The notes: generated from the sequence alone by a model not told the origin. Shown: positions 1-13,799, numbered from the stretch's first letter. The stretch: DNA of 14,092 nt from a virus (IMGVR_UViG_2541047894_000002:1-14092), one strand, 5' to 3'. Numbers and translations are program-made.

Positions 1-396
1 GCAACACCAAAAGCGGTAAAGGCCGCGTATGACCTTGCTAACGGGAAATACACTGCACAGGACGCCACCACAGCGCGAAAAGGTCTTGTCCAGCTCAGTA
101 GCGTCACCAACAGCGATTCTGAAACGCTCGCCGCAACACCAAAAGCGGTTAAGGCAGCGTATGATCTTGCTAACGAAAAATATACCGCACAGGACGCCAC
201 CACAGCGCGAAAAGGCCTTGTTCAGCTCAGTAGCGCCACCAACAGCGATTCTGAAACGCTGGCGGCAACGCCAAAGGCGGTTAAGACAGCGTATGACCTT
301 GCTAACGGGAAATACACTGCACAGGATGCCACCACGGCGCGGAAAGGTCTTGTTCAGCTTAATAGTGCCATCAACAGCGATTCTGAAACGCTGGCT
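1..396 (+). repeat. Three tandem 132-bp (44-codon) near-identical repeats inside the tail fiber gene; a fourth copy starts at 397 and diverges after about 30 bp
   Basis: Repeat unit gcaacaccaaaagcggt...gattctgaaacgct(c/g)gc(c/g/t) restarts at 1, 133, 265 and 397 with only a few substitutions. Each encodes ATPKAVKAAYDLANGKYTAQDATTARKGLVQLSS(V/A)TNSDSETLA. Window begins inside the array, so more copies may lie upstream. Confidence 0.9.
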
Positions 397-1746
397 GCAA
401 CACCAAAAGCGGTGAAGTCTGCCTATGACAATGCTGAAAAACGTCTTCAGAAAGATCAGAACGGTGCGGATATTCCGGGAAAGGATACCTTCACGAAAAA
501 TATCGGTGCCTGTCGTGCTTATAGCGGTGCTTTGAGCACTGAATCCGGAAACTGGACAACCGCTCAGTTTATTGAATGGCTGGATTCCCGTGGTGCATTT
601 AATCATCCGTACTGGATGTGCAAAGGCTCCTGGTCATATGCAAATAACAAAATCATTACGGATACCGGATGTGGTGATATCCACCTGGCTGGTTGTGTCG
701 TCGAGGTCATGGGAACTAAATCTGCAATCACTATCCGAGTGACCACGCCGACAACATCAAGCGGTGGCGGTACAACCAGCGCGCAATTCACTTACATAAA
801 TCATGGGGACGGCTACTCCCCCGGCTGGCGTCGTGACTGGAATCGTCAGGGCGACGCAATGACCGGAACGATTAATCAGGATGGCGGAAGCCAGAATGCC
901 TATATGTCTACGGCCTTATGTTCAGGCACCAGAGGCGGCAAAAAATATCTCAGAAAGTTTCGTGGTGGAGAAGGAGACACTATCTGGCATGAAACAGTAC
1001 AGGCTGGGGTAATTCGCTGGGCGACAGGTAATACTGATGCTCAGGAAGAATTATCACTCAGCTCCGCTTATGGTCTCCGTTCTAGAGGTGAAATTACATC
1101 ACTCAGTGCTAATGGTCTGCGCATTGCTTATGGCAATTATGGATTCTTTATCAGGAATGATGGTGGCAGCACATATTTAATGCTGACGACCTCTGGCGAT
1201 AAATTTGGGACATGGAACGGTTTAAGGCCGCTGACTATCAATAACGCTAATGGCGGAGTGTCAATGGGGCATGGCCTGAGTGTTACTGGTGATATTGTCT
1301 CAAGTACCAAAGTACGTGCCGGTAGCGGGAAAAAACTCACGGTCAGCAGCAGTAATACATCCACGAAGGAAGCCGCATTCAATTTGTGGGGAAACTCAAG
1401 TCGCCCGGTGGTAGCTGAATTAGGTGATGATGCAGGCTGGCATTTTTACAGCCAAAGAAATACAGATAACAGCATCACTTTTGCTGTTAACGGGCAGGTA
1501 TCACCATCTAACTATGGCAACTTTGATTCACGTTATGTCCGGGATATTAGACTTGGTGGTGCGTCATCCTATAAACCAGCAAATAACGGGACAACATGGA
1601 CGCATCAGACTCCATCTGGTTGCGCGTATACCGGGATAATTGTTCAGGATACAGGCTCAAATTCTGCCGATAATATTGGTGGTGTTTATTACAGACCAAT
1701 TCAAAAAAATATTAATGGCACATGGTATAACGTATCGAGTGTTTGA
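1..1746 (+). CDS. Phage tail fiber protein (5' partial; frame 1 is open from base 1, ORF track shows only from the internal GTG at 412)
   Basis: Frame 1 has no stop from 1 to the TGA at 1744-1746. The repeat motif KGLVQLSSATNSDSETLAATPKAVK resembles the lambda Stf / phage tail fibre repeat. C-terminal 440 aa is Gly/Ser/Thr/Asn-rich as in receptor-binding domains. Followed by a tail fiber assembly gene with overlapping stop/start region. Confidence 0.85.
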   Translation, partial: ATPKAVKAAYDLANGKYTAQDATTARKGLVQLSSVTNSDSETLAATPKAVKAAYDLANEKYTAQDATTARKGLVQLSSATNSDSETLAATPKAVKTAYDLANGKYTAQDATTARKGLVQLNSAINSDSETLAATPKAVKSAYDNAEKRLQKDQNGADIPGKDTFTKNIGACRAYSGALSTESGNWTTAQFIEWLDSRGAFNHPYWMCKGSWSYANNKIITDTGCGDIHLAGCVVEVMGTKSAITIRVTTPTTSSGGGTTSAQFTYINHGDGYSPGWRRDWNRQGDAMTGTINQDGGSQNAYMSTALCSGTRGGKKYLRKFRGGEGDTIWHETVQAGVIRWATGNTDAQEELSLSSAYGLRSRGEITSLSANGLRIAYGNYGFFIRNDGGSTYLMLTTSGDKFGTWNGLRPLTINNANGGVSMGHGLSVTGDIVSSTKVRAGSGKKLTVSSSNTSTKEAAFNLWGNSSRPVVAELGDDAGWHFYSQRNTDNSITFAVNGQVSPSNYGNFDSRYVRDIRLGGASSYKPANNGTTWTHQTPSGCAYTGIIVQDTGSNSADNIGGVYYRPIQKNINGTWYNVSSV

Positions 1747-2323: not shown

Positions 2324-2812
2324 TCAGAACAGCCCTTTAACTGAACTGGCCGCGTTGTTAATGGATGCTGTCACCTTATCTTTGAAGCCGGACAGCATAT
2401 CGCTGAACGATGAGGATTGCAGGCGCTCCCGCAAATCCTCATCACAGCGTTCAAGGGTCAGTGAAAATTCTATCTTTTTCGCCTTACCGTAGCGATCAAA
2501 CTCGGAACTGGTCGTATTCGTTCCGGTCAGGACATACATGCCGTAAATCTGCCCGACGCCATCAATAAGAGGCCAGGGGCGTCCTGTATACGCCTGCGTG
2601 GTCAGCAGCGACAGCGACACTTCGCCACCTGTAATTTCAGGATAAAGCACACCAGAAAGAACAATACGATCATCGCCTGCCCCGATATACTGCCAGCTTG
2701 CTGAACGGTTAACGCGTTCATTTTTCACATGTCGCCAGCTTTTATTTTGCTGTAACTGCTGATGCGGCAATGTGCGCAGCTCAAAAACAAACATGCCGTA
2801 GATCATCATCAT
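2324..2812 (-). CDS. U: Tail protein gpU-like
   Basis: Translation MMMIYGMFVFELRTLP...SWRH...GAGDD...LSGVLYPEITGG...WPLIDG...IYGMYV...TTSS resembles P2 gpU as recalled. ORF track start 2818; GAGGAG RBS abuts the first ATG, so the ATG at 2812 (8-nt spacer) is preferred. 6-nt gap from T stop (2825). Confidence 0.8.
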   Translation of the reverse strand: MMMIYGMFVFELRTLPHQQLQQNKSWRHVKNERVNRSASWQYIGAGDDRIVLSGVLYPEITGGEVSLSLLTTQAYTGRPWPLIDGVGQIYGMYVLTGTNTTSSEFDRYGKAKKIEFSLTLERCDEDLRERLQSSSFSDMLSGFKDKVTASINNAASSVKGLF

Positions 2813-2824
2813 GGCCATGACTCC

Positions 2825-5641
2825 TCAATCTTTATCGTAAAAACTGCCACGCCCGGCACGGGCGCGCCGTTCCATTTCTGCCCTGACCATTTCACCGACC
2901 AGTTTCGCTAGTTCGCGGGGATTCTGTGTAACAACGTTATGCAGATGAACATGAATTTCACCGCCAAATCCGGAGGCAACAGGTTCCCGGTTACGGGAAG
3001 TTGCAGGAACTGATGCCACTGGCGATCGTATGGCCTCCGCCACCGGGCGGGAGCTGGCCGCAACAACAGGGACCAGCGCCGGAGGCAGCGGAGCCGGAAC
3101 CACGGGTGTGATATTAATTGCGGTGGCAGGCTTACTGACCTGCGCAATCTTCCGCTCCTGCCACTCCCCACGAACAACAAGTGCGCGGGGCAGGTTCTTA
3201 AAGACAATATCGCCGGGGCCAATGCGTTTTTTCGTCTCATCAACCAGCTTACCTGTGTTATCAGCAATTTTGCTGAGTCTGCGTAGCGTCCCGGTATTGC
3301 TGTCTGTGAGCGGTTTATTGTCTTTGGGTTTATCACCTCCGGTGCCATTGCCATTTTCCACAGGCTTCGGCGGATTGATTTTCGCCAGGTCCCCCTGAAG
3401 CAAGGCAACCTTGTCCTGAAGAATGGCCGCACGCTGTGCGTCTTCGATTTTCTTTCTCGCCCTTTCCGCTTCATCCGGAAGAACACCGAGTTTTTCAAGT
3501 ATCCACGCCAGCGTATCCAGCAACATTTTTGCAGGCGTCAGAACAAGCTGTAACGCGCCACCAAGAACGTTACCGAATATCTCGCCAGCACTGGTACATT
3601 TATCCAGCGTTTCCTTGCTGGACTCCATCGGTGACAGCAGCGATTTGAACCAGTTAAACACCTGGCTGATCCCGCTTCCGATTGCGTCAAAAACAGGACC
3701 AAACTGTTCAAAGGTTTCGCGCAACGGGATCAGCCTTTCCATAATCCCGCTGAACACCCCGGCAAAAAATGCCCTGATGGGATCCCAGTATTTCGAGATA
3801 AGAACGGCAGCTCCGGCAAGCGCAGCCACGATAAGACCAACCGGACTGAATAGCGCCCCGATAGCACCTCCCAGCAAAGAAACGGAACCCGTCACCATTC
3901 CCCATAGTGCTGGCAGGACCCTGACAGCATTCATTGATCCGGTCAGGAGAGAAAAACCAAGACGCAGTTTTGCCAGCGGGCCAGCAAGCACACCAATAGC
4001 CAGCGACAACGAGCCAACCGTTGCAGTCATTGCCAGCAACGCACCGCCTGCTATCAGTAGCTGGCGCGTCAGTACCGGATGGGCCTGCGCCAGCGCCGTC
4101 ACCCTTGATACCACCCACGTGAGCCACTGCGTGACAGAACGCAGCGGACCGTCAATCAGATCTGCAATGCGGATGCGCAACCCTTCCCATGCACTGCCGA
4201 GTGATTTCAGATCGCCGTCAAGGTTGTTGGCCATAACCTTTGCTGTGCGTTCAGCCTCACCGCGCGCGCCTTCAAGTTCTTTTCTCAGTTTGGGTAAGGA
4301 ACCGTCACCCGCTGCATCAACGAGCGCCATAAACGATGTGAAAGCCTCTTCTCCGGCAATGTCCTTAAAGAACGATACCCGGTCAACTTCCCCGTATTTG
4401 CGGGTGGCTTTATAAAGGTCAGCCAGCACATCCTCCATCGGGCGCATTTTGCCGTTCGCGTCAGAGACTGCCACACCAAGCTCTTTCAGCGCCTCTGCTG
4501 CTGCCTTTGGCGGTGATGCCAGACGAGCCAGGCTGGCACGCATTGCCGTCCCGGCATCACTCCCTCTGATACCCATATTCGCCAGCACGCCCGCCATCGC
4601 TGCGGCCTGCTCCAGCGATATTCCCAGCTTACCCGCCACCGGACCTGCATATTTCATGGTTTCACCCAGTGCGCGAAGGTCAGTGTTGGTACGGGTAAAC
4701 GCTGCGGTGAGTGTGTCACCGACCCGGTCCATCTGGTCAGCAGAAAGGCCGAACTGCGTCAGGATATTTGAGCCAATATCTGCCGTCTCGCCGAGATCCA
4801 TACCGCCAGCCGTTGCCATGCTCAGCACGCTGGGAAGCGCAGCCTGAATGGCCTGCGGAGTGAAGCCAGCCATTGCAAGAAATGCCTGTCCACTGGCGGC
4901 ATCGCCTGCGGTAAACTGCGTTTCAGAGCCAAGTTTTAACGCCTGCTCACGCAGCGCCTTAAACTGCGGGCTGTTCTGGTCGATTCGCGTCAGTGCCTGA
5001 ACGCGGGACATCTCTTTGCCGAACCCGATCGCAGGCTGCAAAAAACGCCCCGCAGCATAGCCGCCCGCCGCTGCCGCACCAATTGCCAGCGCACCACCTG
5101 TTTTCAGTTTTCCCGCAGTTTCCTGCGCGCGCGAATACCGCTCACGCGCCCGCGTTACACGCGCAAGTGCCTGCCGTTCGCGTTCAAGCTGGTTGTTGTA
5201 CTGTTCGGTGCGTCTGATGGCCTGCTGGATGGTGTTATCGCTGCCTGTCAGGGAAATGCCGTGGCGTTTCAGCTCTCCGCCAAGCTCCCGCATTTTCTGA
5301 ATTTCCCGTGTGCGCGATTCATTCAGGCGTTCAAGCCGGGTGCTTAACTGCTGCATCAGCTTTTGTTGCTTTTCGCTGAGCACTGTACCCGTGCGTTGTA
5401 ACTGATTAAGGGCGTTAAGCTGGCGTCGTGCTTTCACGATACCCGCATCCGCTTTACTGACAGCGTCGCGGGCGCGCTCAAATGAACGCGCCTGACGCTC
5501 GAGATTTTTGATCGCCCCCTGCGTTCGCTGGATGGAGTCACCAAACTGCCCCATCAGGCGGCGGGCGTTTTCGGCAGGCCGGGTCAGCCTGTCAACGGCG
5601 CTGAAAGCGACCCGGATATCAAGAGTCTTCATTGTCTGCAT
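2825..5641 (-). CDS. T: Tail tape measure protein (gpT-like), about 939 aa
   Basis: Large Ala/Gly/Leu-rich protein with coiled-coil N-terminal part and hydrophobic glycine-rich central segments, downstream of the E/E' chaperone pair as in P2-type tail modules. Start ambiguous: ATG at 5641 (MQTMKTL...) or 5632; ORF track reports upstream extension to 5668. Start overlaps end of E'. Confidence 0.85.
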   Translation of the reverse strand: MQTMKTLDIRVAFSAVDRLTRPAENARRLMGQFGDSIQRTQGAIKNLERQARSFERARDAVSKADAGIVKARRQLNALNQLQRTGTVLSEKQQKLMQQLSTRLERLNESRTREIQKMRELGGELKRHGISLTGSDNTIQQAIRRTEQYNNQLERERQALARVTRARERYSRAQETAGKLKTGGALAIGAAAAGGYAAGRFLQPAIGFGKEMSRVQALTRIDQNSPQFKALREQALKLGSETQFTAGDAASGQAFLAMAGFTPQAIQAALPSVLSMATAGGMDLGETADIGSNILTQFGLSADQMDRVGDTLTAAFTRTNTDLRALGETMKYAGPVAGKLGISLEQAAAMAGVLANMGIRGSDAGTAMRASLARLASPPKAAAEALKELGVAVSDANGKMRPMEDVLADLYKATRKYGEVDRVSFFKDIAGEEAFTSFMALVDAAGDGSLPKLRKELEGARGEAERTAKVMANNLDGDLKSLGSAWEGLRIRIADLIDGPLRSVTQWLTWVVSRVTALAQAHPVLTRQLLIAGGALLAMTATVGSLSLAIGVLAGPLAKLRLGFSLLTGSMNAVRVLPALWGMVTGSVSLLGGAIGALFSPVGLIVAALAGAAVLISKYWDPIRAFFAGVFSGIMERLIPLRETFEQFGPVFDAIGSGISQVFNWFKSLLSPMESSKETLDKCTSAGEIFGNVLGGALQLVLTPAKMLLDTLAWILEKLGVLPDEAERARKKIEDAQRAAILQDKVALLQGDLAKINPPKPVENGNGTGGDKPKDNKPLTDSNTGTLRRLSKIADNTGKLVDETKKRIGPGDIVFKNLPRALVVRGEWQERKIAQVSKPATAINITPVVPAPLPPALVPVVAASSRPVAEAIRSPVASVPATSRNREPVASGFGGEIHVHLHNVVTQNPRELAKLVGEMVRAEMERRARAGRGSFYDKD

Positions 5642-6148
5642 TCCCGCTGCGAAGTGCCGCCCGCTCACGCCAGCTAACCACTTCGCCGGGCGTCATCATG
5701 AAGATTTCGGCGGGCGACCAGTTAAAAATAACGGCAATATCTGCCACAAAGTCTTCTATGTGCTCAAAGCACACAACCGTGATCAGGCTTCCGTCGCCTG
5801 TTCGTTCTTCCCGCCAGAGTCCGCACCGCTCAAAAAATTTACGGCAACCACACATAACTGAATAAAGTCACGGGATGCCATTTTTTTGATCGTCACTTCA
5901 TCCAGTCGCGGTGATGTCACGCGTGACAGCAGCGTAAACATGGATTCCGCTTTCAGATTCAGCACATCAGACAGCGACAAATCTCGCAGAGATCCAGCCT
6001 GCTCAATAGCTCCGGTGATCTCCACATACGTGATTTTTTCGCCGCCTCGCTCAATTGGTTGGGTAAGTTTTACGCCACGCTCACTGGTTTCTTTCACAGT
6101 GTCAGCAACGACCGTGTTTTCGGTATCGATGTTTTTCGTCTCTTTCAT
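5619..6148 (-). CDS. E+E': Tail assembly chaperone E+E' fusion produced by programmed -1 ribosomal frameshift (predicted about 176 aa)
   Basis: ORF 5619..5855 lies in the -1 frame relative to E (start coordinates 6148 mod 3 = 1, 5855 mod 3 = 2). Slippery heptamer T_TTT_TTG occurs in E in the correct register (0-frame codons aaT TTT TTG at - strand 5837..5831). After the slip the reading continues ...NFF-ERCGLWREERTGDGSLITVVCFEH... to the TGA at 5621-5619. Confidence 0.6.
5783..6148 (-). CDS. E: Tail assembly chaperone gpE-like (121 aa, 0-frame product)
   Basis: Located between tail tube FII and tape measure T as in P2; AAGGAG RBS 8 nt upstream of ATG at 6148; contains the frameshift heptamer near its 3' end. 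Confidence 0.8.
   Translation of the reverse strand: MKETKNIDTENTVVADTVKETSERGVKLTQPIERGGEKITYVEITGAIEQAGSLRDLSLSDVLNLKAESMFTLLSRVTSPRLDEVTIKKMASRDFIQLCVVAVNFLSGADSGGKNEQATEA
5831..5837 (-). other. Programmed -1 frameshift slippery site TTTTTTG (P2 E/E' type)
   Basis: + strand caaaaaa at 5831-5837 = - strand TTTTTTG; in-frame as T_TTT_TTG relative to the E reading frame; -1 frame open downstream for 70 codons. Confidence 0.6.
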
Positions 6149-6202
6149 CAGGAAACTCCTTTCAGTCAGAGGCGACGCACTGCGCCGCCTGCATATTACT
6201 TA

Positions 6203-6715
6203 TCAGCCAAGCCCGAGCGCAGAACGGATGCGATCGGGCACAATGTCCTTGCCGTCCTTCCGGTAAATGAAGTTCAGCAGGTCAATCTCCCACAACGGGC
6301 GATCGTTAACACTCAGCTTGTAGTAGGTGTTTTTAATGGCGTAAGTGTGTGATGTGGCTTCGCCCTGTTTGGCTTCCCCCATATCAATTTCCGTCACACG
6401 TCCGCGCATTTCGACTTCATACAGGTCGCTTTCTGCATCGGTGTAATATTCACCCGCAAAACGCAGCAGCGTGCCGTCAATCGTGCCGCCATACTTAAGG
6501 AACAGCTCACGAACTGCGCCCCCCATGACAAAGCTCGCATCAAGCGCGGAGTCGTCCAGACCGAGATCAATACTTACCGCACCCATCATGCCACCACCCC
6601 GGTAGCTGTCGGTTTTGCGCGTCAGCTTAGGCAGAGTGACGGACGTCACCTTACCCACTTCGTTTTCACCATCCACAAACAGCGTAAAAAAGCGAAGATG
6701 TTTTGGCACAGCCAT
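6203..6715 (-). CDS. FII: Tail tube protein (P2 FII-like)
   Basis: MAVPKHLRFFTLFVDG...VTLPKLTRKTDSYRGGGMMG...DLGLDD...RFAGEY...VEMRGR..EID.GE.KQGE matches the P2 FII pattern as recalled; GGGAGG RBS; start overlaps FI stop (TGATG). Confidence 0.85.
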   Translation of the reverse strand: MAVPKHLRFFTLFVDGENEVGKVTSVTLPKLTRKTDSYRGGGMMGAVSIDLGLDDSALDASFVMGGAVRELFLKYGGTIDGTLLRFAGEYYTDAESDLYEVEMRGRVTEIDMGEAKQGEATSHTYAIKNTYYKLSVNDRPLWEIDLLNFIYRKDGKDIVPDRIRSALGLG

Positions 6716-7899
6716 CAGGCACCTCCCAGCACCGCAAATGCGGGTTCAAAGTATTCATCAGTAAACGTCTGGTAAAGCTCCATGTCTTCCAGTGGCGGAA
6801 CGGGCGTATATTTGTAGCGAATACGCACACGTCCCTGACGTAAATCCGTGGTGCTGTTATCCACCACGTCATACCAGCACTCCGCGCCAATCAGTTTCCC
6901 GGCAGTAACCAGTGAATCCAGTTTTGCCCTGATGGCACTGATAACATCCTTCACGTTCGCAGGCGTCAGTGGACTGTCGATGGTTTCAAACTGCGCTTCC
7001 GCAATTGAATCAGCCAGCACCTGTGCGGTTCGGGTATACACCTCAAAGATGTAGGCGTTCGTTTCCGGTGTGCGGTTGCCCCAGAAGCGGAACCCGTTGC
7101 GACGAATAATGGTCGTGATTTCTTTGTTGTTAAGGCTGTTGGCATCACTGTCTTCGGCCTGCAACGACCAGAAAACATGCCTCGACATCCCCAGCACATT
7201 TTTAACCGGAACGTTGGACAGCGATTTGTGCCATCCCTGCTCATGGTCAATGTACGCACGAAGGCCGCACGCATAGGCAGGCGCGGGGAACGTTTCGTTT
7301 TTGCCACTTTTCGGGTTGTAGGCGATGAAGTCCGGCCATAAGAGCATCACCTCACGTTCGTTGAATTTCTGGCGGTAGGTAATCGCCGCAGCCATCGTGT
7401 TACAGCCGTGACATGAGGCATACACAAACGCGCGCAGTTTACCTGCAATCACGCACAGGGATTTTGTTACAGCCTCCGTGTCCAGCTCCGGCGCGGCCAG
7501 AATACGCGGACGGTATCCGATGCTTTCATCCTGCTCTGCAACAAGCAGCGCATACATCCCCGTATAGCTGCCGTCATCCTCAGAACCACCGATAACCAGT
7601 TGATCCTGCGTCTTTCCGTCTTCTTCTTTGTGTTCAGCCACGCGAACGACGATCACCTTTGTGCTCACCTGGTCTGCGATGGCCTTAAGCGCACGATAAA
7701 GCGTCCCCGTTGTCCCGCATTTTCCCAGCACGTCATTGACGCGGGTCAGCAGTGTGGGCTTGTTCAGCGGGAACAGCTTCGCGTCCGCATCATCCGCCGT
7801 TGCCACGATACCGATAACGCTGGAATCAACATCGTTAATCGCTGTTACCAGGTCGGTATTTTCCGTAACACGGGCACCATGAAAACGAGTTTCACTCAT
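6715..7899 (-). CDS. FI: Contractile tail sheath protein (P2 FI-like)
   Basis: 394 aa; motifs ...FPLNKP...LRAFVYASCHGC...WPDF...EQGWHKSLSNV...IRRNGFRFWGNRT...NYTRTAQV...RYKYTPVPPLE... match P2 FI sheath as recalled; AAGGGG RBS 8 nt upstream of ATG at 7899. Confidence 0.9.
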   Translation of the reverse strand: MSETRFHGARVTENTDLVTAINDVDSSVIGIVATADDADAKLFPLNKPTLLTRVNDVLGKCGTTGTLYRALKAIADQVSTKVIVVRVAEHKEEDGKTQDQLVIGGSEDDGSYTGMYALLVAEQDESIGYRPRILAAPELDTEAVTKSLCVIAGKLRAFVYASCHGCNTMAAAITYRQKFNEREVMLLWPDFIAYNPKSGKNETFPAPAYACGLRAYIDHEQGWHKSLSNVPVKNVLGMSRHVFWSLQAEDSDANSLNNKEITTIIRRNGFRFWGNRTPETNAYIFEVYTRTAQVLADSIAEAQFETIDSPLTPANVKDVISAIRAKLDSLVTAGKLIGAECWYDVVDNSTTDLRQGRVRIRYKYTPVPPLEDMELYQTFTDEYFEPAFAVLGGA

Positions 7900-8056
7900 A
7901 GCTTCAGCCCCTTGTATCCGTTAAATGATTCGGCAACAATCATCACCCACCACGCGCGTAATCTCACCCCTGCGCCGTTCTCCCGCCACGGCGACAACAA
8001 AAAGCAGTAACCCCCTACGCACGCACATGCGACCATGCCGCACAGGGAGGGAACAG
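7900..8056. promoter_or_regulatory. Divergent intergenic region between FI (-) and D (+); presumed promoters for both
   Basis: 157-bp non-coding gap flanked by divergently oriented start codons with RBSs on each side. No exact TGT-N12-ACA (Ogr/late-promoter type) dyad found by eye; only one TGT in the region (7913-7915). Confidence 0.3.
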
Positions 8057-9166
8057 ATGACCGATACCACCATGCAATTGCTCAGTCAGAGCACAGACCC
8101 CGTGAAAATGCCGGATTTTGATATTCTCGCGGAGGGGGAAACACTGTCCGGCGTGGCAGAGCGCCTGATGAGCCTGTCACTGACCGACAACCGGGGATTT
8201 GAAGCGGACCAGCTCACCATCACGCTGGATGATGCGGATGGTCAGTTGCAGCTACCGCCACGGGGCGTGCGCCTGACGGTTCTCATTGGCTGGAAAGGAG
8301 AACCGCTGACAGAAAAAGGCACTTACATTGTTGATGAAATCGCTCACGAAGGACCGCCGGACAGGCTGACGGTTTCAGCCAGAAGCGCAGATTTTCGGGA
8401 TGAATTTAACGTTAAACGTGAGGTGTCCTGGCATGATGTGACCGTTGAGCGCGTGGTATCCGCCATCGCTCATCGGTATGGTCTGAAACCGCAAATCAGC
8501 GAAATGCTGATGGATATAGAAATCGACCACGCCGACCAGACCGAAGAAAGCGACATGTCCTTTCTTACGCGCATGGCGGAAATGCTGGGCGCAATCACCA
8601 CAGTAAAAAGCGGTAATCTGTTATTCATCATGCCCGGTGGTGGCGTGAACGCACAGGGCCAGCCGTTGCCATCGTTCGCCATCACACGCAGCAGCGGCGA
8701 TCGCCATCAGTTCCGCATTGCTGACCGCGAGGCGTATACGGGTGTACGCGCCTACTGGCTTGATCTTAATTACGGGAAAAAGAAAAAAGTCAGCGTGAAA
8801 CGCCGCAAACCGCAAAAACCCAAAAAGGAGAAAAGCAGCAGCCGTGAAGGTGATTATATGGAAGGCGCGGAAGGCAACGTGTTTGTGTTACGCAAGACTT
8901 ATCAGAACGAGCAGGCAGCAAGACGCGCAGCGGCGGCAAAGTGGCAGCAGCTACAACGCGGAGCCGCAGCGTTCTCCATCACACTGGCACGTGGACGCGC
9001 AGAACTCTACCCCGAAATGCATGGCACGGTAACAGGATTTAAAAGCGAAATTGATAATCAGGACTGGATTATTGCAAAAGCCGAGCACACCATTGATAAC
9101 AGCGGCTTTACCACGCAGCTTGAACTTGAGGCAAAAATCCCGGAATGGATAGCAGAAACAGCTTGA
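8057..9166 (+). CDS. D: Tail protein D (P2 gpD / phage late control D family)
   Basis: 369 aa from ATG at 8057 with GGAGGG RBS 5 nt upstream; motifs LSLSLTDNRGFEADQL.I.LDDADGQ, SARSADFR, SWHD.T, FLTR.AE, ITRS.GDRH.F.IADR.AYTGV.A.W, lysine-rich KKKKVSVKRRKPQKPKKEK linker, REGDYMEG..NVF, FSI.LA.GRA, NSGFTT.LELE match gpD as recalled. ORF-track N-terminal extension from 7925 rejected. Confidence 0.85.
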   Translation: MTDTTMQLLSQSTDPVKMPDFDILAEGETLSGVAERLMSLSLTDNRGFEADQLTITLDDADGQLQLPPRGVRLTVLIGWKGEPLTEKGTYIVDEIAHEGPPDRLTVSARSADFRDEFNVKREVSWHDVTVERVVSAIAHRYGLKPQISEMLMDIEIDHADQTEESDMSFLTRMAEMLGAITTVKSGNLLFIMPGGGVNAQGQPLPSFAITRSSGDRHQFRIADREAYTGVRAYWLDLNYGKKKKVSVKRRKPQKPKKEKSSSREGDYMEGAEGNVFVLRKTYQNEQAARRAAAAKWQQLQRGAAAFSITLARGRAELYPEMHGTVTGFKSEIDNQDWIIAKAEHTIDNSGFTTQLELEAKIPEWIAETA

Positions 9167-9334: not shown

Positions 9335-11374
9335 TCAACTTTGCCAATCATCAGCTATCTGTTGCCAATTAACTTTCCGAGGTTCTTTTGTAGTGCTAGA
9401 CCACACATCCCAAAAATCAGGATCATCAGATTGCGGTCGTTGTTTTTCAGTAAGCTCTTTCATTCTAACTAAAACAGGAAGTTCTGAAGCCCATCCAAGT
9501 AAAATAGCATGCCTAGATGGTAACGATGGCAGCTCTCTCAACAGCCCTCTCATATTATCTGGAACAAGTCTATGTACTTGCTCTTGATCTCTATCATTAC
9601 TAATCCTGTGCAACAAAAAAGTATTACATTGAGATAAAACCGTCGGAGATAGCTCTGATGGCCTTTGGGAAGAAACAACAAGGCCTAGCCCAAACTTTCT
9701 TCCTTCCCGTGCAATCTTTTCAAACACCTTGCAACATATATCAGAGACTGACTGAGTTTCACTATCTTCCTTGTAACGTTTAATAAACGTATGCGCTTCT
9801 TCTGCAACTAAAACTGTTGGTAGCGGCCTTCCATTTAATCTTCGATAACGTTGTAGTGCTTCAAAAGCCACCCTAGAAATTACAGCTGTTACCAAATGAA
9901 TTATTTCATTTGGTACTAGAGATAAATCTATAACAGTTATAGATCCTTGTTCATTTTTACCGAGAAAAGTGTCTAACCAATTAGTTAAACTTATAGGCTT
10001 TACAGAATCATTGGTTACTGCACTAATACGAGTGTCACCTAGCATTGTTCGAATACGAGTCAAAAGAAACTCAACGAATTGTTCTGTACCTGTTTCTTGA
10101 GCCAGAGCTTCGAGATATGCGACAAAATCATCGCCTTTAAAACGCATAGGCGCATCTTCGCTTTTTGGAAGAAGTTCTTGTTCATCTCCCCCTAGAGCTG
10201 TATATGCATCTCTGAATCCATTAATCAACAACTCAATCTCGGAAACAACAGGCTTTGCTGGCCAAGAAGATCCACTTCGTGAAGAAAGATACGTATTTAT
10301 TGTGTTTATTAGCTTATCGAGCGATTTATCAACAATTCTCTCGTTTAAGATAGAAATACTATCTCTCCAAGAACCCAAAGTTTCAACCAAACCTTTAGCA
10401 GATCCACTATTCACATATATCTGACCTTGACTTGCCTGCTGTCTCATAGATACAAGAAGGATACCGCAAAAGCGTTTGGCTTGAATTTTCACATCATCTT
10501 CTGATAGAAGATTATTCCTCATTGCCCTCAAAGCACGACGTAGTAAAGGAAGTTGCACCTTTGAACTTGCTTGAGTGAAAGCAGCCCACTCAGAACTATT
10601 CCATAACCATGAAGGTACTTTAAGATCCATCTCTCCGACATCGATGTTAGCCTCTACACGTAATAGTTTACCCTTATATCTTGATTCTGGCCCTAAAGCT
10701 CTACTATATTCTCCGTTCGGATCAAGTATTATAAATCGAGCATTTGGAGATTTTCCCTGTTGTAAAACAGCATCAAGAGACCATTGAATTAAGCCGGCCA
10801 CCGAACATGATTTACCACTACCCGTATTACCTAAAACAGCTATATGTCGTCCGAAAAGTCTATCGGGGTCTACTTTTATTTCAGCATTGTTAGCTAGGGG
10901 GCTATCCCCTATTTTTACCCTTCTATTATCACCTGATTCAATTATTGATTGTAATTGTCGGTCAGTAGGCAAAAGCACAGAGTCACCAACCGAAGGGAAA
11001 GCATCAGTTCCTCTCGTGAACCTGAAACCTTCGTTTTTTCTATCAACTCTCAATGTACCAACTGGATTGATACTAAGCTTTTTAAGTGGGAAAGGAAGGT
11101 CTATCAACCCAAAATCTTGTAAGCCTCTTCTTTTGGGATATGGCGAGTTTTCTATTGCAATCCACTCAACTTGCCCAACAAGAAACCCGTCATCACTACG
11201 GATTAAAATATAACTATTTATTCTAGGAAAATTACGAGGCGCCCCACCTTGAAGTGATACTGAATCAGGAGAATCAATCTCTAAAGACACCCTAATTTCA
11301 TTAGGTGATACAAACTCAACAGTTCCAATTCTTAGTTGTTCTATTTTTTCTATTGGTAAATAACTCATTGTCAT
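9335..11374 (-). CDS. HerA-like (FtsK/HerA superfamily) ATPase, partner of SIR2 protein
   Basis: Walker A HIAVLGNTGSGKS; Walker B-like PTVLVAEEAHTF; GLGLVVSSQRPSEL (arginine-finger region typical of HerA/DUF87); N-terminal beta-rich region (GTVEFVSPNEIRVSLEID) consistent with a HAS-barrel. ATG at 11374 overlaps upstream stop (ATGA); GAGGT abuts that ATG, so ATG at 11368 (6-nt spacer) may be the real start. Confidence 0.8.
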   Translation of the reverse strand: MTMSYLPIEKIEQLRIGTVEFVSPNEIRVSLEIDSPDSVSLQGGAPRNFPRINSYILIRSDDGFLVGQVEWIAIENSPYPKRRGLQDFGLIDLPFPLKKLSINPVGTLRVDRKNEGFRFTRGTDAFPSVGDSVLLPTDRQLQSIIESGDNRRVKIGDSPLANNAEIKVDPDRLFGRHIAVLGNTGSGKSCSVAGLIQWSLDAVLQQGKSPNARFIILDPNGEYSRALGPESRYKGKLLRVEANIDVGEMDLKVPSWLWNSSEWAAFTQASSKVQLPLLRRALRAMRNNLLSEDDVKIQAKRFCGILLVSMRQQASQGQIYVNSGSAKGLVETLGSWRDSISILNERIVDKSLDKLINTINTYLSSRSGSSWPAKPVVSEIELLINGFRDAYTALGGDEQELLPKSEDAPMRFKGDDFVAYLEALAQETGTEQFVEFLLTRIRTMLGDTRISAVTNDSVKPISLTNWLDTFLGKNEQGSITVIDLSLVPNEIIHLVTAVISRVAFEALQRYRRLNGRPLPTVLVAEEAHTFIKRYKEDSETQSVSDICCKVFEKIAREGRKFGLGLVVSSQRPSELSPTVLSQCNTFLLHRISNDRDQEQVHRLVPDNMRGLLRELPSLPSRHAILLGWASELPVLVRMKELTEKQRPQSDDPDFWDVWSSTTKEPRKVNWQQIADDWQS

Positions 11375-12783
11375 ACCTCAACTTCGGCTGAATTACCTAA
11401 CTCTTTGAACTGCATAAAGCCTCTTTGTTTGAGCAACTCTGCCATCTTGATTGATGCTTTATCAATAGCTGGTTTAGGTAAATAGTTATCAACTAAAGTT
11501 TTGAAGTCTCCTAAATGATCTCCCATCAAAAGGGTAATCTGTGCTTTTCTTCCACTATTACTAATGAAACGCATAATTCTGCCAAGTGGATCGCCAAAGG
11601 CTATTATTACTATATGAGTGGAAGGTACCGTAAGCATGTCTTCAATTACTCTATTGATATGCTCATCACCAAAGCTATAACCATAAGTGACTAATGTGCT
11701 ATTTGGACGGCTAGTTGCTGCTGCCAGATCTCGAAATAGCTCAACATAAGGATACTCGGCTGTTTCTCTGTCTTTTACTGAATTAGGGTAAATCATCAGT
11801 TTTTCATAGCCATTGCTTTGATGACCTTCGGCTTCCAAAAACGGCTCAACAGAACGTGCTCCAAAGGGTAAGCCAAAGCGCCTAATCGCATTATTTTGTT
11901 CATGCCAATCAAGGGAACCATGAAGTTTAGTAAAACGTGCCACGCCCTCCAAGTATCTTGGTTCACCACGGATTCCAGGAGGATTATAATGATAATCAAC
12001 TTCTAATCTTGAGGATCGAAATACTGGAGCAATACTTCCTACAAAGCGATCAATAAGTCTTAAACCAGCAAGCTCAGCACCCACTTCAATAATACGGTCA
12101 TAATTTGTTGTAAAGATATGTAGCCTATCGCGAGTGGCAGTTCTACTTGCAAAGCTCATCAAAAAACTAACTAGATAGTTGAAAGTTTCCTCTTTCCGGG
12201 CTGGTTCAGCAGTTTTGATTAAATATTCTCCTTTAATTATAGATTTAGAAAACTCCCCCAAGCATCTAGAAAGCTCGCCTTTGAGCTCGCCCAAGTCTGC
12301 TTTTAAGTTTCTATAAGCAGAATAAGGAGGTGGCGGATTTTCTGGTTGAGGAGTATTTAACACCGTTAAAATTTCGAGACCTTTAATAAGTTCATTGATA
12401 GTTCTAATTTGATCTTCTATATTTCCTCTATCGCGACCTGCAGCTTTTGCAGCCTGAGTGGAAAATTCATCTATTTCGCTTTTACATACTTTTAAATCAT
12501 TAATCCACCCCATCCCTACTGGAGATAAACCTGTAGCTGATTTTTGAATAGCCGAGCTTAAGCCTGCACCGATTAATAAATTTAAATGCTCTGATTGGAA
12601 GAGAGCTGTTAGCCAGGGCTCAATATTTTGGCGCAATTTCTCAATTGATATTTCTGCCCCCTGTTCTCCCCATACACAGTTCTTCGAGAGGATAAAAGGA
12701 TGAGAATCAGCATGCTCGCCAGAATTAGATGATAGATCAATAATTTCTGATATACTGCCAACTTTTATATGTTGAATACTCAT
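11371..12783 (-). CDS. SIR2-family (SIR2_2 / DUF4020-like) protein, predicted NAD+-consuming effector
   Basis: Motifs in order: LNLLIGAGLS (Gly-rich NAD-binding loop), IFTTNYDRIIE (TTNYD), KLHGSLDW (catalytic-His region), YGYSFGDEHINRVIEDM. ORF track start at 12843 is TTG; ATG at 12783 (MSIQHIKVG...) preferred but weak SD, so start is uncertain (12783-12843). Stop overlaps HerA start. Confidence 0.75.
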   Translation of the reverse strand: MSIQHIKVGSISEIIDLSSNSGEHADSHPFILSKNCVWGEQGAEISIEKLRQNIEPWLTALFQSEHLNLLIGAGLSSAIQKSATGLSPVGMGWINDLKVCKSEIDEFSTQAAKAAGRDRGNIEDQIRTINELIKGLEILTVLNTPQPENPPPPYSAYRNLKADLGELKGELSRCLGEFSKSIIKGEYLIKTAEPARKEETFNYLVSFLMSFASRTATRDRLHIFTTNYDRIIEVGAELAGLRLIDRFVGSIAPVFRSSRLEVDYHYNPPGIRGEPRYLEGVARFTKLHGSLDWHEQNNAIRRFGLPFGARSVEPFLEAEGHQSNGYEKLMIYPNSVKDRETAEYPYVELFRDLAAATSRPNSTLVTYGYSFGDEHINRVIEDMLTVPSTHIVIIAFGDPLGRIMRFISNSGRKAQITLLMGDHLGDFKTLVDNYLPKPAIDKASIKMAELLKQRGFMQFKELGNSAEVEV

Positions 12784-13207
12784 AAATGCACTTCTTTTAT
12801 TTGTGTTAAAAAACATACTTTTGTAGAGGCAAACGAGTGCCAAGAGTATGAAACTTAGCGATTAAGTTCGAATCTTACACCTCCCAAAGCCTCTGAGAAT
12901 TATCAACCTAACCCAAAGGAACTCAATCAGCGTTTTATTTTAGCACGACTAAATAACTAGTAGATAGCGTCAAAGACAAACCGGGGAGATAAAAACTTAC
13001 AACACTGCCACCAGTAAAATCATCTACATACCAACAAGTTGCCTTCAATCACGTAGAATAATCCTACTAGTGCATAGTCAATCTCGACTACTTACTCAGT
13101 GAAAATTCAACTGCAAACTTCTGGTTTTTACTCAAAGCAAGCAGTTAGTTGGAATCAGTATTAGTACAACTTAGAATAATAGAAACACCACGTTAAGGGA
13201 GGTCGCT

Positions 13208-13468
13208 ATGTTCCGTTGTCCACTTTGTGGCGCGTCTGCCCGTATCCGCACCAGTCGTCCGGAAAATGACTCAAACACCGTGCGGCAAAAGTATTACCAG
13301 TGTAATAACCTGGAATGCGGCGTATGCTTCTCAACACTGGAAGCTTTTCATAAGTTCACATCAAAACACACCTCAGAAGTTCATTCTTCAGAAGACATAC
13401 CGTGGCAGGCTCTGCCAGCTTCACACAGGGGGAACAATCAGATGAGTTTGCCCTTATCTCAGAATTAA
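13208..13468 (+). CDS. ogr: Ogr/Delta-family zinc-finger late transcription activator
   Basis: MFRCPLCGASARIRTSR...YYQCNNLECGVCF: Cys-X2-Cys ... Cys-X4-Cys arrangement and N-terminal MF.CPLC....A..RTSR pattern of P2 Ogr as recalled; strong RBS AAGGGAGG 5 nt upstream; 86 aa. Confidence 0.85.
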   Translation: MFRCPLCGASARIRTSRPENDSNTVRQKYYQCNNLECGVCFSTLEAFHKFTSKHTSEVHSSEDIPWQALPASHRGNNQMSLPLSQN

Positions 13469-13528: not shown

Positions 13529-13792
13529 ATGGTCGGAGGGAATACCCGAAGGCCAGATGTGGAAAGGCCCCGGAAAACATCTCTGTTTAACCGAGGCCCT
13601 AACCGCATTACCTTGACAAGTGAAAGGTTAGCGCCTCTCCTGAAAAGGAGCAAGTGCTATGTCGCAAAAATCGCTTACGGCCATCACGTTCTGCGTGACG
13701 GCAATCCTCATCATCTGGATGCTGCACGGTTCGCTGTGCGAAATACGGATGAGCTTCTGGGGAGCGGAGTTTGCGGCGTTCTTACAGTGTAA
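13529..13792 (+). CDS. mok-like overlapping reading frame covering the hok-like toxin ORF (true start uncertain)
   Basis: ORF in a different frame (start 13529 mod 3 = 2, hok-like 13659 mod 3 = 0) spanning almost the whole toxin ORF and ending 7 nt before its stop, as in hok/mok/sok loci. No independent sequence support for translation. Confidence 0.3.
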   Translation: MVGGNTRRPDVERPRKTSLFNRGPNRITLTSERLAPLLKRSKCYVAKIAYGHHVLRDGNPHHLDAARFAVRNTDELLGSGVCGVLTV

Positions 13793-13799
13793 GCAGTAA
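13659..13799 (+). CDS. Hok/Gef-family type I toxin (46 aa small membrane peptide)
   Basis: atg tcg caa aaa ... cag taa encodes MSQKSLTAITFCVTAILIIWMLHGSLCEIRMSFWGAEFAAFLQCKQ: N-terminal hydrophobic helix followed by the SLCEIR motif and AAF, characteristic of Hok/Gef peptides. RBS AAAAGGAG 8 nt upstream. Below the ORF-track size cutoff. Confidence 0.65.
   Translation: MSQKSLTAITFCVTAILIIWMLHGSLCEIRMSFWGAEFAAFLQCKQ

Follow-up and report, generated by a model that had tools for sequence, protein, structure and literature searches.

The window, by which we mean the whole stretch of DNA analyzed here (14,092 nt), opens inside the tail fiber gene of a P2-family prophage. Window 1-1746 was identical at 1746 of 1746 positions to the 3' part of a gene annotated as "tail fiber protein" in a matching prophage of E. 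coli NZ_CP073589, which we refer to as L002. Window position 1 is codon 239 of that gene H, the full product of which is WP_021549125.1 (819 aa), and frame 1 stays open from the window edge as far as the stop at 1746. The features of this gene and of the gene that follows it are as listed here, with the evidence for each in parentheses; L001 is a second matching prophage.

1-1746, + strand: P2-type tail fiber gene H, 3' 71% (codons 239-819 and stop; 100% identical to WP_021549125.1)
1-429, + strand: tandem array with a period of 132 nt (44 codons); the window holds 3.2 of its 4.7 copies, the 3' 70% (Tandem Repeats Finder, repeat search, shuffles, L002)
1-78, + strand: repeat unit 2, 3' part (codons 239-264, KG[FL]VQL register), clipped by the window edge (mapping onto L002 gene H)
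79-210, + strand: repeat unit 3 (codons 265-308), KGLVQLSSVTNSDSETLAATPKAVKAAYDLANEKYTAQDATTAR (unit table, distance matrix; unit HMM 5.5e-34)
211-342, + strand: repeat unit 4 (codons 309-352) (unit table, distance matrix, unit HMM)
343-438, + strand: terminal partial unit 5 (codons 353-384) with the motif KGLVQLNSAINSDSETLAATPKAVKSAYDNAE, then Mu S-like sequence (unit HMM positions 1-32, 1.4e-19; Mu S chain alignment)
427-888, + strand: distal domain, query residues 381-534, like part of the chimeric Mu S/S' chain 8ju3 (phmmer against the PDB, 8ju3_A, E 1.4e-69)
1042-1740, + strand: Gp34-type trimerization domain (PF21446, aa 586-651), then Mu S-like receptor-binding tip (aa 593-818) (Pfam; 5yvq_A)
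1749-2282, + strand: tail fiber assembly chaperone G, of the P2 G/lambda Tfa family (PF02413, E 1.7e-34; annotation of L001 and L002)

The full H protein starts with a tail-collar fiber N-terminal domain (PF12571, aa 6-153, E 6.2e-54 in Pfam), which lies outside the window, since the window starts at codon 239, and which was read from the gene with the identical 3' 1746 nt. From aa 173 onward there are five stretches of PF03406 (Phage_fiber_2), which together score 318.1 bits against a gathering cut-off of 22 (E 3.8e-97). The window fragment of H by itself gave four matches to a unit HMM that was built from E. coli units. Toward the C terminus, H aa 593-818 (window 1063-1740) matched the Mu S tip 5yvq_A with a domain E of 4.3e-42 in a phmmer search of the PDB. 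A single fiber thus has two distal parts that match different solved Mu fiber chains, 8ju3 and 5yvq; the matched part of the chimeric chain 8ju3 is presumably S', the G(-) fiber. In L001 and L002 the genes are in the order V-W-J-I-H-G, and the capsid and terminase genes belong to the P2 family. The repeats are thus in a tail fiber setting, and one of P2 gpH type, with PF12571 at the N terminus of the protein, a Mu-homologous distal tip, the PF02413 chaperone G downstream, V-W-J-I upstream, and the structural genes of a prophage around them. The initial annotation had read them as a tail fiber shaft repeat, and this reading was upheld. They are the known PF03406 repeat in a P2-type gpH: the Pfam family is long-standing, and the exact protein is already found in RefSeq and in hundreds of contigs. 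As a feature the array is ordinary, and it matters little for discovery.

The array itself was evident by several routes. Tandem Repeats Finder gave it 88% matches and 0% indels at a score of 669, and the remaining three rows in the 14 kb scored just 31 to 39. A repeat search found in-register copies of the 132-nt repeat at window positions 1, 133, and 265. The self-identity of window 1-429 was 0.88 at an offset of 132 and 0.87 at an offset of 264; the highest value at any offset was 0.43 among 1000 shuffles, and 0.40 when 66 stretches of 429 nt from elsewhere in the window were tried. Frame 1 of the array reads as three 44-aa units, ATPKAVKAAYDLANGKYTAQDATTARKGLVQLSS.TNSDSETLA, followed by a fourth copy that holds register for approximately its first 11 residues and then diverges. 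We take the array to be real because the tandem repeat calls, the shuffle control, and the frame-1 units agree. The initial annotation had described 132-bp tandem repeats at 1-430, in three full copies plus a diverging fourth encoding a 44-aa unit, and all of this stood except the term "near-identical," which is too strong for three full copies that are 87 to 91% identical in DNA and 91 to 95% identical in protein. It had also proposed that the array is truncated by the window edge. The complete array in the identical gene (L002 5946-6561) has 4.7 copies and begins 187 nt upstream of window position 1, so the edge does cut off the first 187 nt. Repeat unit 3 of the window had no close counterpart in the four other arrays compared, and unit 4 was nearest to the third unit in the arrays of L001, L004, and L005, with 8 to 9 differences per 132 nt. 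An ORF in frame 2 (29-415, 128 aa) was set aside; it is wholly within the repeat-coding part of H, where the Pfam and RefSeq matches are in frame 1.

P2 offers the most direct comparison for the gene as a whole. Like the window H, P2 gpH (NP_046775, 669 aa) has an N-terminal domain of the baseplate-binding type, though only some 66% identical to that of window-type H, and a 44-aa repeat from about aa 174, and P2 shares the gene order I-H-G with the window prophage. However, the unit HMM found two motifs in canonical P2 gpH, at aa 174-251, against five in the window allele, and the distal domains are unlike those of P2 gpH, the window H resembling the Mu fiber chains 8ju3 and 5yvq in this part. 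A cryo-EM preprint describes P2 gpH as a homotrimer of ~54 nm with an N-terminal adaptor and, adjoining it, "two repeat domains (RBPseg-D19)," in a fiber model that is AF3-derived and fitted to a low-resolution map; in the retracted state the fiber docks on the sheath layers in two classes, either at layer 6 or at layers 3-4 (doi 10.64898/2026.09.14.750843). By analogy with that preprint, the window-type H would be a homotrimeric fiber on gpI with the repeats as part of its shaft (doi 10.64898/2026.09.14.750843). The 44-residue modules would then form the proximal shaft of a P2-type fiber, in a run that sits after the baseplate-plugging N-terminal domain and before the distal receptor-binding domains.

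The motif is also found in fibers of other kinds. In lambda, the unit HMM matched orf401, the N-terminal part of Stf, at aa 361-394 (3e-19). Lambda Stf (orf401/orf314) has in common with the window H the motif RKGIVQLSSATNSTSETLAATPKAVKVVMDETN, at 78.6% DNA identity, and a PF02413 Tfa chaperone encoded next to it, and the lambda Stf-like motif of the initial annotation is thus well founded. However, Stf has a single copy of the motif and an N-terminal part unrelated to that of the window H, and lambda is a siphovirus in which the side fiber is an accessory structure. Mu S (PDB 5yvq, 9ki1, 8ju3) likewise has the motif, at residues ~105-150, as one copy with no array. The Mu chains homologous to the distal domains of the window H are 8ju3 (aa 381-534) and the S tip 5yvq (aa 593-818). 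Variation of the Mu fiber is by inversion of the G segment, whereas window-type H varies by unit number and homologous exchange. P1 gene S is 72.5% identical in DNA to the window array, and the P1 record has a "repeated element a1" under the match, but P1 S has a different fiber context, with a C-segment inversion system. Haggard-Ljungquist et al. in 1992 and Sandmeier in 1994 reportedly pointed out that the motif is common to unrelated phages.

Copy number of the array was compared between related prophages, as had been suggested together with the prediction that it would vary between strains. The best protein homologs are 775, 819, and 863 aa in length; these 44-aa steps correspond to 4, 5, and 6 motifs, and the rest of the protein is more than 90% identical. 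Joining the N-terminal 528 nt to the 700 nt downstream of the array gave a query for which both flanks were present in 30 complete E. coli genomes; there the flank-to-flank spans were 1448, 1580, 1712, 1844, and 1976 nt, exact steps of 132 nt. Two, three, four, five, and six motifs were present in 1, 1, 7, 7, and 14 of these genomes, respectively, and the 2-motif H gene is an intact ORF of 687 aa. The copy number of the H array differs between strains by whole 132-bp units, and the prediction of the initial annotation is confirmed. The whole-unit alleles lie on matching flanks, and in one prophage, L003 (below), there is a hybrid unit at the junction. Complete H genes from P2-like phages in IMG/VR (n = 59) had 1 to 8 motifs, although part of the copy number alleles come from draft assemblies and the 7- and 8-motif counts may be wrong or too low owing to identical adjacent units; the 8-motif version of H is 951 aa long and has the same tip as that of the window. 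In other species the first unit begins at aa 172-201 (mostly 173-177), after the N-terminal domain, and there are 1 to 4 motifs, mostly 1 in Xenorhabdus and Photorhabdus. A literature search for an earlier account of copy number variation in the gpH repeats yielded nothing specific. Annotators should expect fibers that differ in length by 44 residues and not call them errors, and array length could be used as a typing marker for P2-like prophages.

The gain or loss of single units can be followed in close relatives. L003, a prophage in NZ_CM137001, matches the 14-kb window over its whole length at 99.5% identity, and its H gene lacks exactly 132 nt of the window allele. L003 has a hybrid unit, the 5' part of which is from unit 3 and the 3' part from unit 4, with the crossover within a 9-nt identical stretch. 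Such a unit is the signature of unequal homologous recombination or of slipped misalignment. The arrays of L004, L007, and L006 are set apart from one another by exact duplication of a single unit, with one and two additional copies. L006, with 8 motifs, and L007, with at least 7, are IMG/VR sequences in which two or three adjacent units have 0 differences. These two arrays derive from the 6-motif allele by recent exact duplication of one of its units, and their count in short-read assemblies might be too low. The five motifs of L001 (A-B-C-B'-E) and the five of L002 (A-B-X-C-E) are not the same set of units, and this number was therefore reached independently. Because the DNA of the units remains 81 to 93% identical, misaligned homologous recombination would occasionally add or remove whole units. 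This process would alter the protein in in-frame steps of 44 residues. Alleles with 2 to 8 motifs do exist on the same N-terminal and distal domains, making the array a natural in-frame, length-polymorphic spacer of 2 to 8 units on one fiber type.

The array also has a second role, in recombination at its 3' end. Between L001 and L002, gene H diverges by 2% in the N-terminal part and by 4.5 to 12% in units 1-4; beyond unit 4, which ends at nt 1041, the two H genes have a single mismatch over ~1400 nt and the two G genes have none. On a mismatch map, the alleles of L001 and L002 meet in a recombination junction at the 5' border of partial unit 5. Matches between the window and other phages break off at 417-476, the 3' end of the array, and the distal module is also present, at 98.9% identity, behind an N-terminal domain of the P2-proper type. 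The break between L001 and L002, the ends of the matches, and the presence of the module behind a P2-type N-terminal domain are the reasons for which we consider the array a crossover site for the receptor-binding module and its chaperone. At the DNA level the array has matches of 71 to 93% identity in P2-like phages and in P1 S, lambda stf, and Mu S. This conserved array, common to lambda, Mu, P1, and other phages, acts as a patch of homology, at which the distal receptor-binding module and the chaperone gene are swapped between phages. Judged from the sequence comparisons, chaperone gene G travels with the distal part of H. The array is a natural splice point for swaps of receptor-binding modules, which is relevant to the engineering of P2 or pyocin-type fibers.

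Overall, we think it very probable that the array is a run of PF03406 modules in the proximal shaft of a P2-type gpH, that its units are old paralogs gained and lost as whole units, and that distal modules are exchanged at it. The initial annotation had read the likeness of the copies as recent expansion or ongoing homogenization. An array that was recently expanded, or that is held uniform by gene conversion (concerted evolution), would be in keeping with the 91 to 95% identity of the unit proteins, with the 0-difference tandem duplicates in the related arrays L006 and L007, and with the one-unit deletion between two prophages that are 99.5% identical. However, the four full units of the window allele have pairwise dS values of 0.27 to 0.61, far over the between-strain dS of 0 to 0.08 for the N- and C-terminal parts of H; they have 12 to 19 differences per 132 nt, mostly synonymous, and dN/dS values of 0.03 to 0.17. 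When 24 units drawn from five arrays were compared pairwise, paralogs within an array had 11 to 19 differences per 132 nt, versus 0 to 8 for units of the same type across prophages, and units are thus nearer to their counterparts in other phages than to their own neighbors. The closest pair of units was at least 3 nt apart in 46 of 49 arrays, with 12 to 18 differences commonest and 9 to 25 usual, and identical units occurred in only 3 of the 49. Because dS is high, dN/dS is low, and same-type units are closer, the likeness of the units is accounted for by purifying selection and not by recent duplication or homogenization. The window array is an old set of distinct paralogs, the protein sequence of which is under strong purifying selection, and we regard recent expansion or concerted evolution as very unlikely. 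Still less probable is a contingency locus, in which unit number would switch often within a lysogen population and so diversify fiber length and host range. The exact in-frame steps between very close relatives and the arrival at the same copy number by independent routes would fit such a locus. The units, however, are 9 to 14% diverged, their identical tracts are no longer than 38 nt, and the period is long, all of which predicts that recombination is rare and not frequent, and the synonymous divergence shows long persistence of most units.

A further question is whether the copy number of the window, or the whole copy number series, could be an artifact of repeat collapse or expansion during assembly. 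The 132-nt period is near the length of a short read, H is the gene in which 14 of 76 IMG/VR contigs end (L007, L008, L018, L035, L037, L038, L040, L047, L048, L056, L058, L059, L076, and L081), and a collapse would yield a hybrid unit just as a real crossover does. However, no two units are identical over a stretch of more than 38 nt, and an assembly with k-mers above that length tells all of the units apart and resolves the array. The identical 819-aa protein was found in 461 contigs and the 775-aa allele in 53, and the 5-motif array occurs between the same flanks in seven complete genomes. All five size classes are represented in RefSeq assemblies at the "complete genome" level, as exact multiples of 132 nt with intact ORFs. 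The contigs that end within H mostly do so 100 to 250 aa beyond the array and thus outside it. Distal fiber sequence has up to 15 matching places per genome, which points to assembly breaks caused by distal fiber sequences common to several prophages per genome as the origin of these contig ends. Misassembly of the window array would be unlikely on these grounds, and an artifactual origin of its copy number or of the series is highly improbable. The initial annotation had warned that the array is prone to collapse or expansion in short-read assemblies; this proved weak given an inter-unit match of at most 38 nt, although the counts for L006 and L007 may be wrong or too low.

For the particle, the consequence would be one of length. 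Given the trimeric shaft architecture, each unit would add a fixed length of shaft, so that copy number would set the length and reach of the fiber and would matter for infection. This link of copy number to fiber length and function is an inference, as an AF2 monomer model of window 1-660 (mean pLDDT 42, all-helix) is unusable for a trimeric fiber, the PDB chains cover one motif only, in Mu S, and the P2 fiber model is derived from AF3. A stronger proposal is that unit number is an adaptive ruler, with selection tuning fiber length to O-antigen or capsule thickness or to the sheath docking layer. If so, the gain and loss of units would be a dial for host range and stability that is separate from receptor specificity. 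The one hint in its favor is that among 55 P2-like proteins from IMG/VR, which are phylogenetically non-independent, more units went with shorter distal parts (Spearman rho, -0.61). This was not replicated with one genome per species (n = 70; rho, -0.07; p, 0.58), and the enterobacterial subset gave a rho of -0.30 (p, 0.10). Length compensation, in which a short distal part would be made up for by additional units, was rejected on this basis, and we consider the adaptive ruler itself unlikely.

The rest of the window carries the genes listed here.

2324-7899, - strand: sheath (FI), tube (FII), E/E', tape-measure (T), and U
7925-9166, + strand: tail gene D
9335-11374, - strand: HerA-type ATPase (PADLOC 3e-252)
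11371-12843, - strand: SIR2 (PADLOC 3e-155)
13208-13468: ogr
13659-13799, + strand: Hok/Gef-family toxin ORF of 46 codons, after ogr and just inside the right end of the prophage

The sheath-to-U (FI-U) block is inverted in the window prophage relative to P2, and the inverted arrangement is likewise present in L001 to L004. An invertible segment was considered for this block and rejected, as no inverted repeats flank it and the matches of 14 to 28 nt are at chance level. An Rfam scan of the whole window found no RNA family, and thus no Sok-type RNA to go with the Hok/Gef ORF. For L002, RefSeq annotates gene D (14498-15298) as its C-terminal 267 codons only, together with a spurious pseudogene. 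A truncated gene D can be dismissed for the window, where the ORF is intact. This ORF has 98% identity to D of L001, a protein of 369 aa, and its true start is probably Met45, at about 8057. The genes for SIR2 and HerA form an anti-phage defense pair (9335-12843, - strand) between tail gene D and ogr. In L001 gene D is directly followed by ogr, and the SIR2-HerA pair in the window is therefore a cargo insertion.
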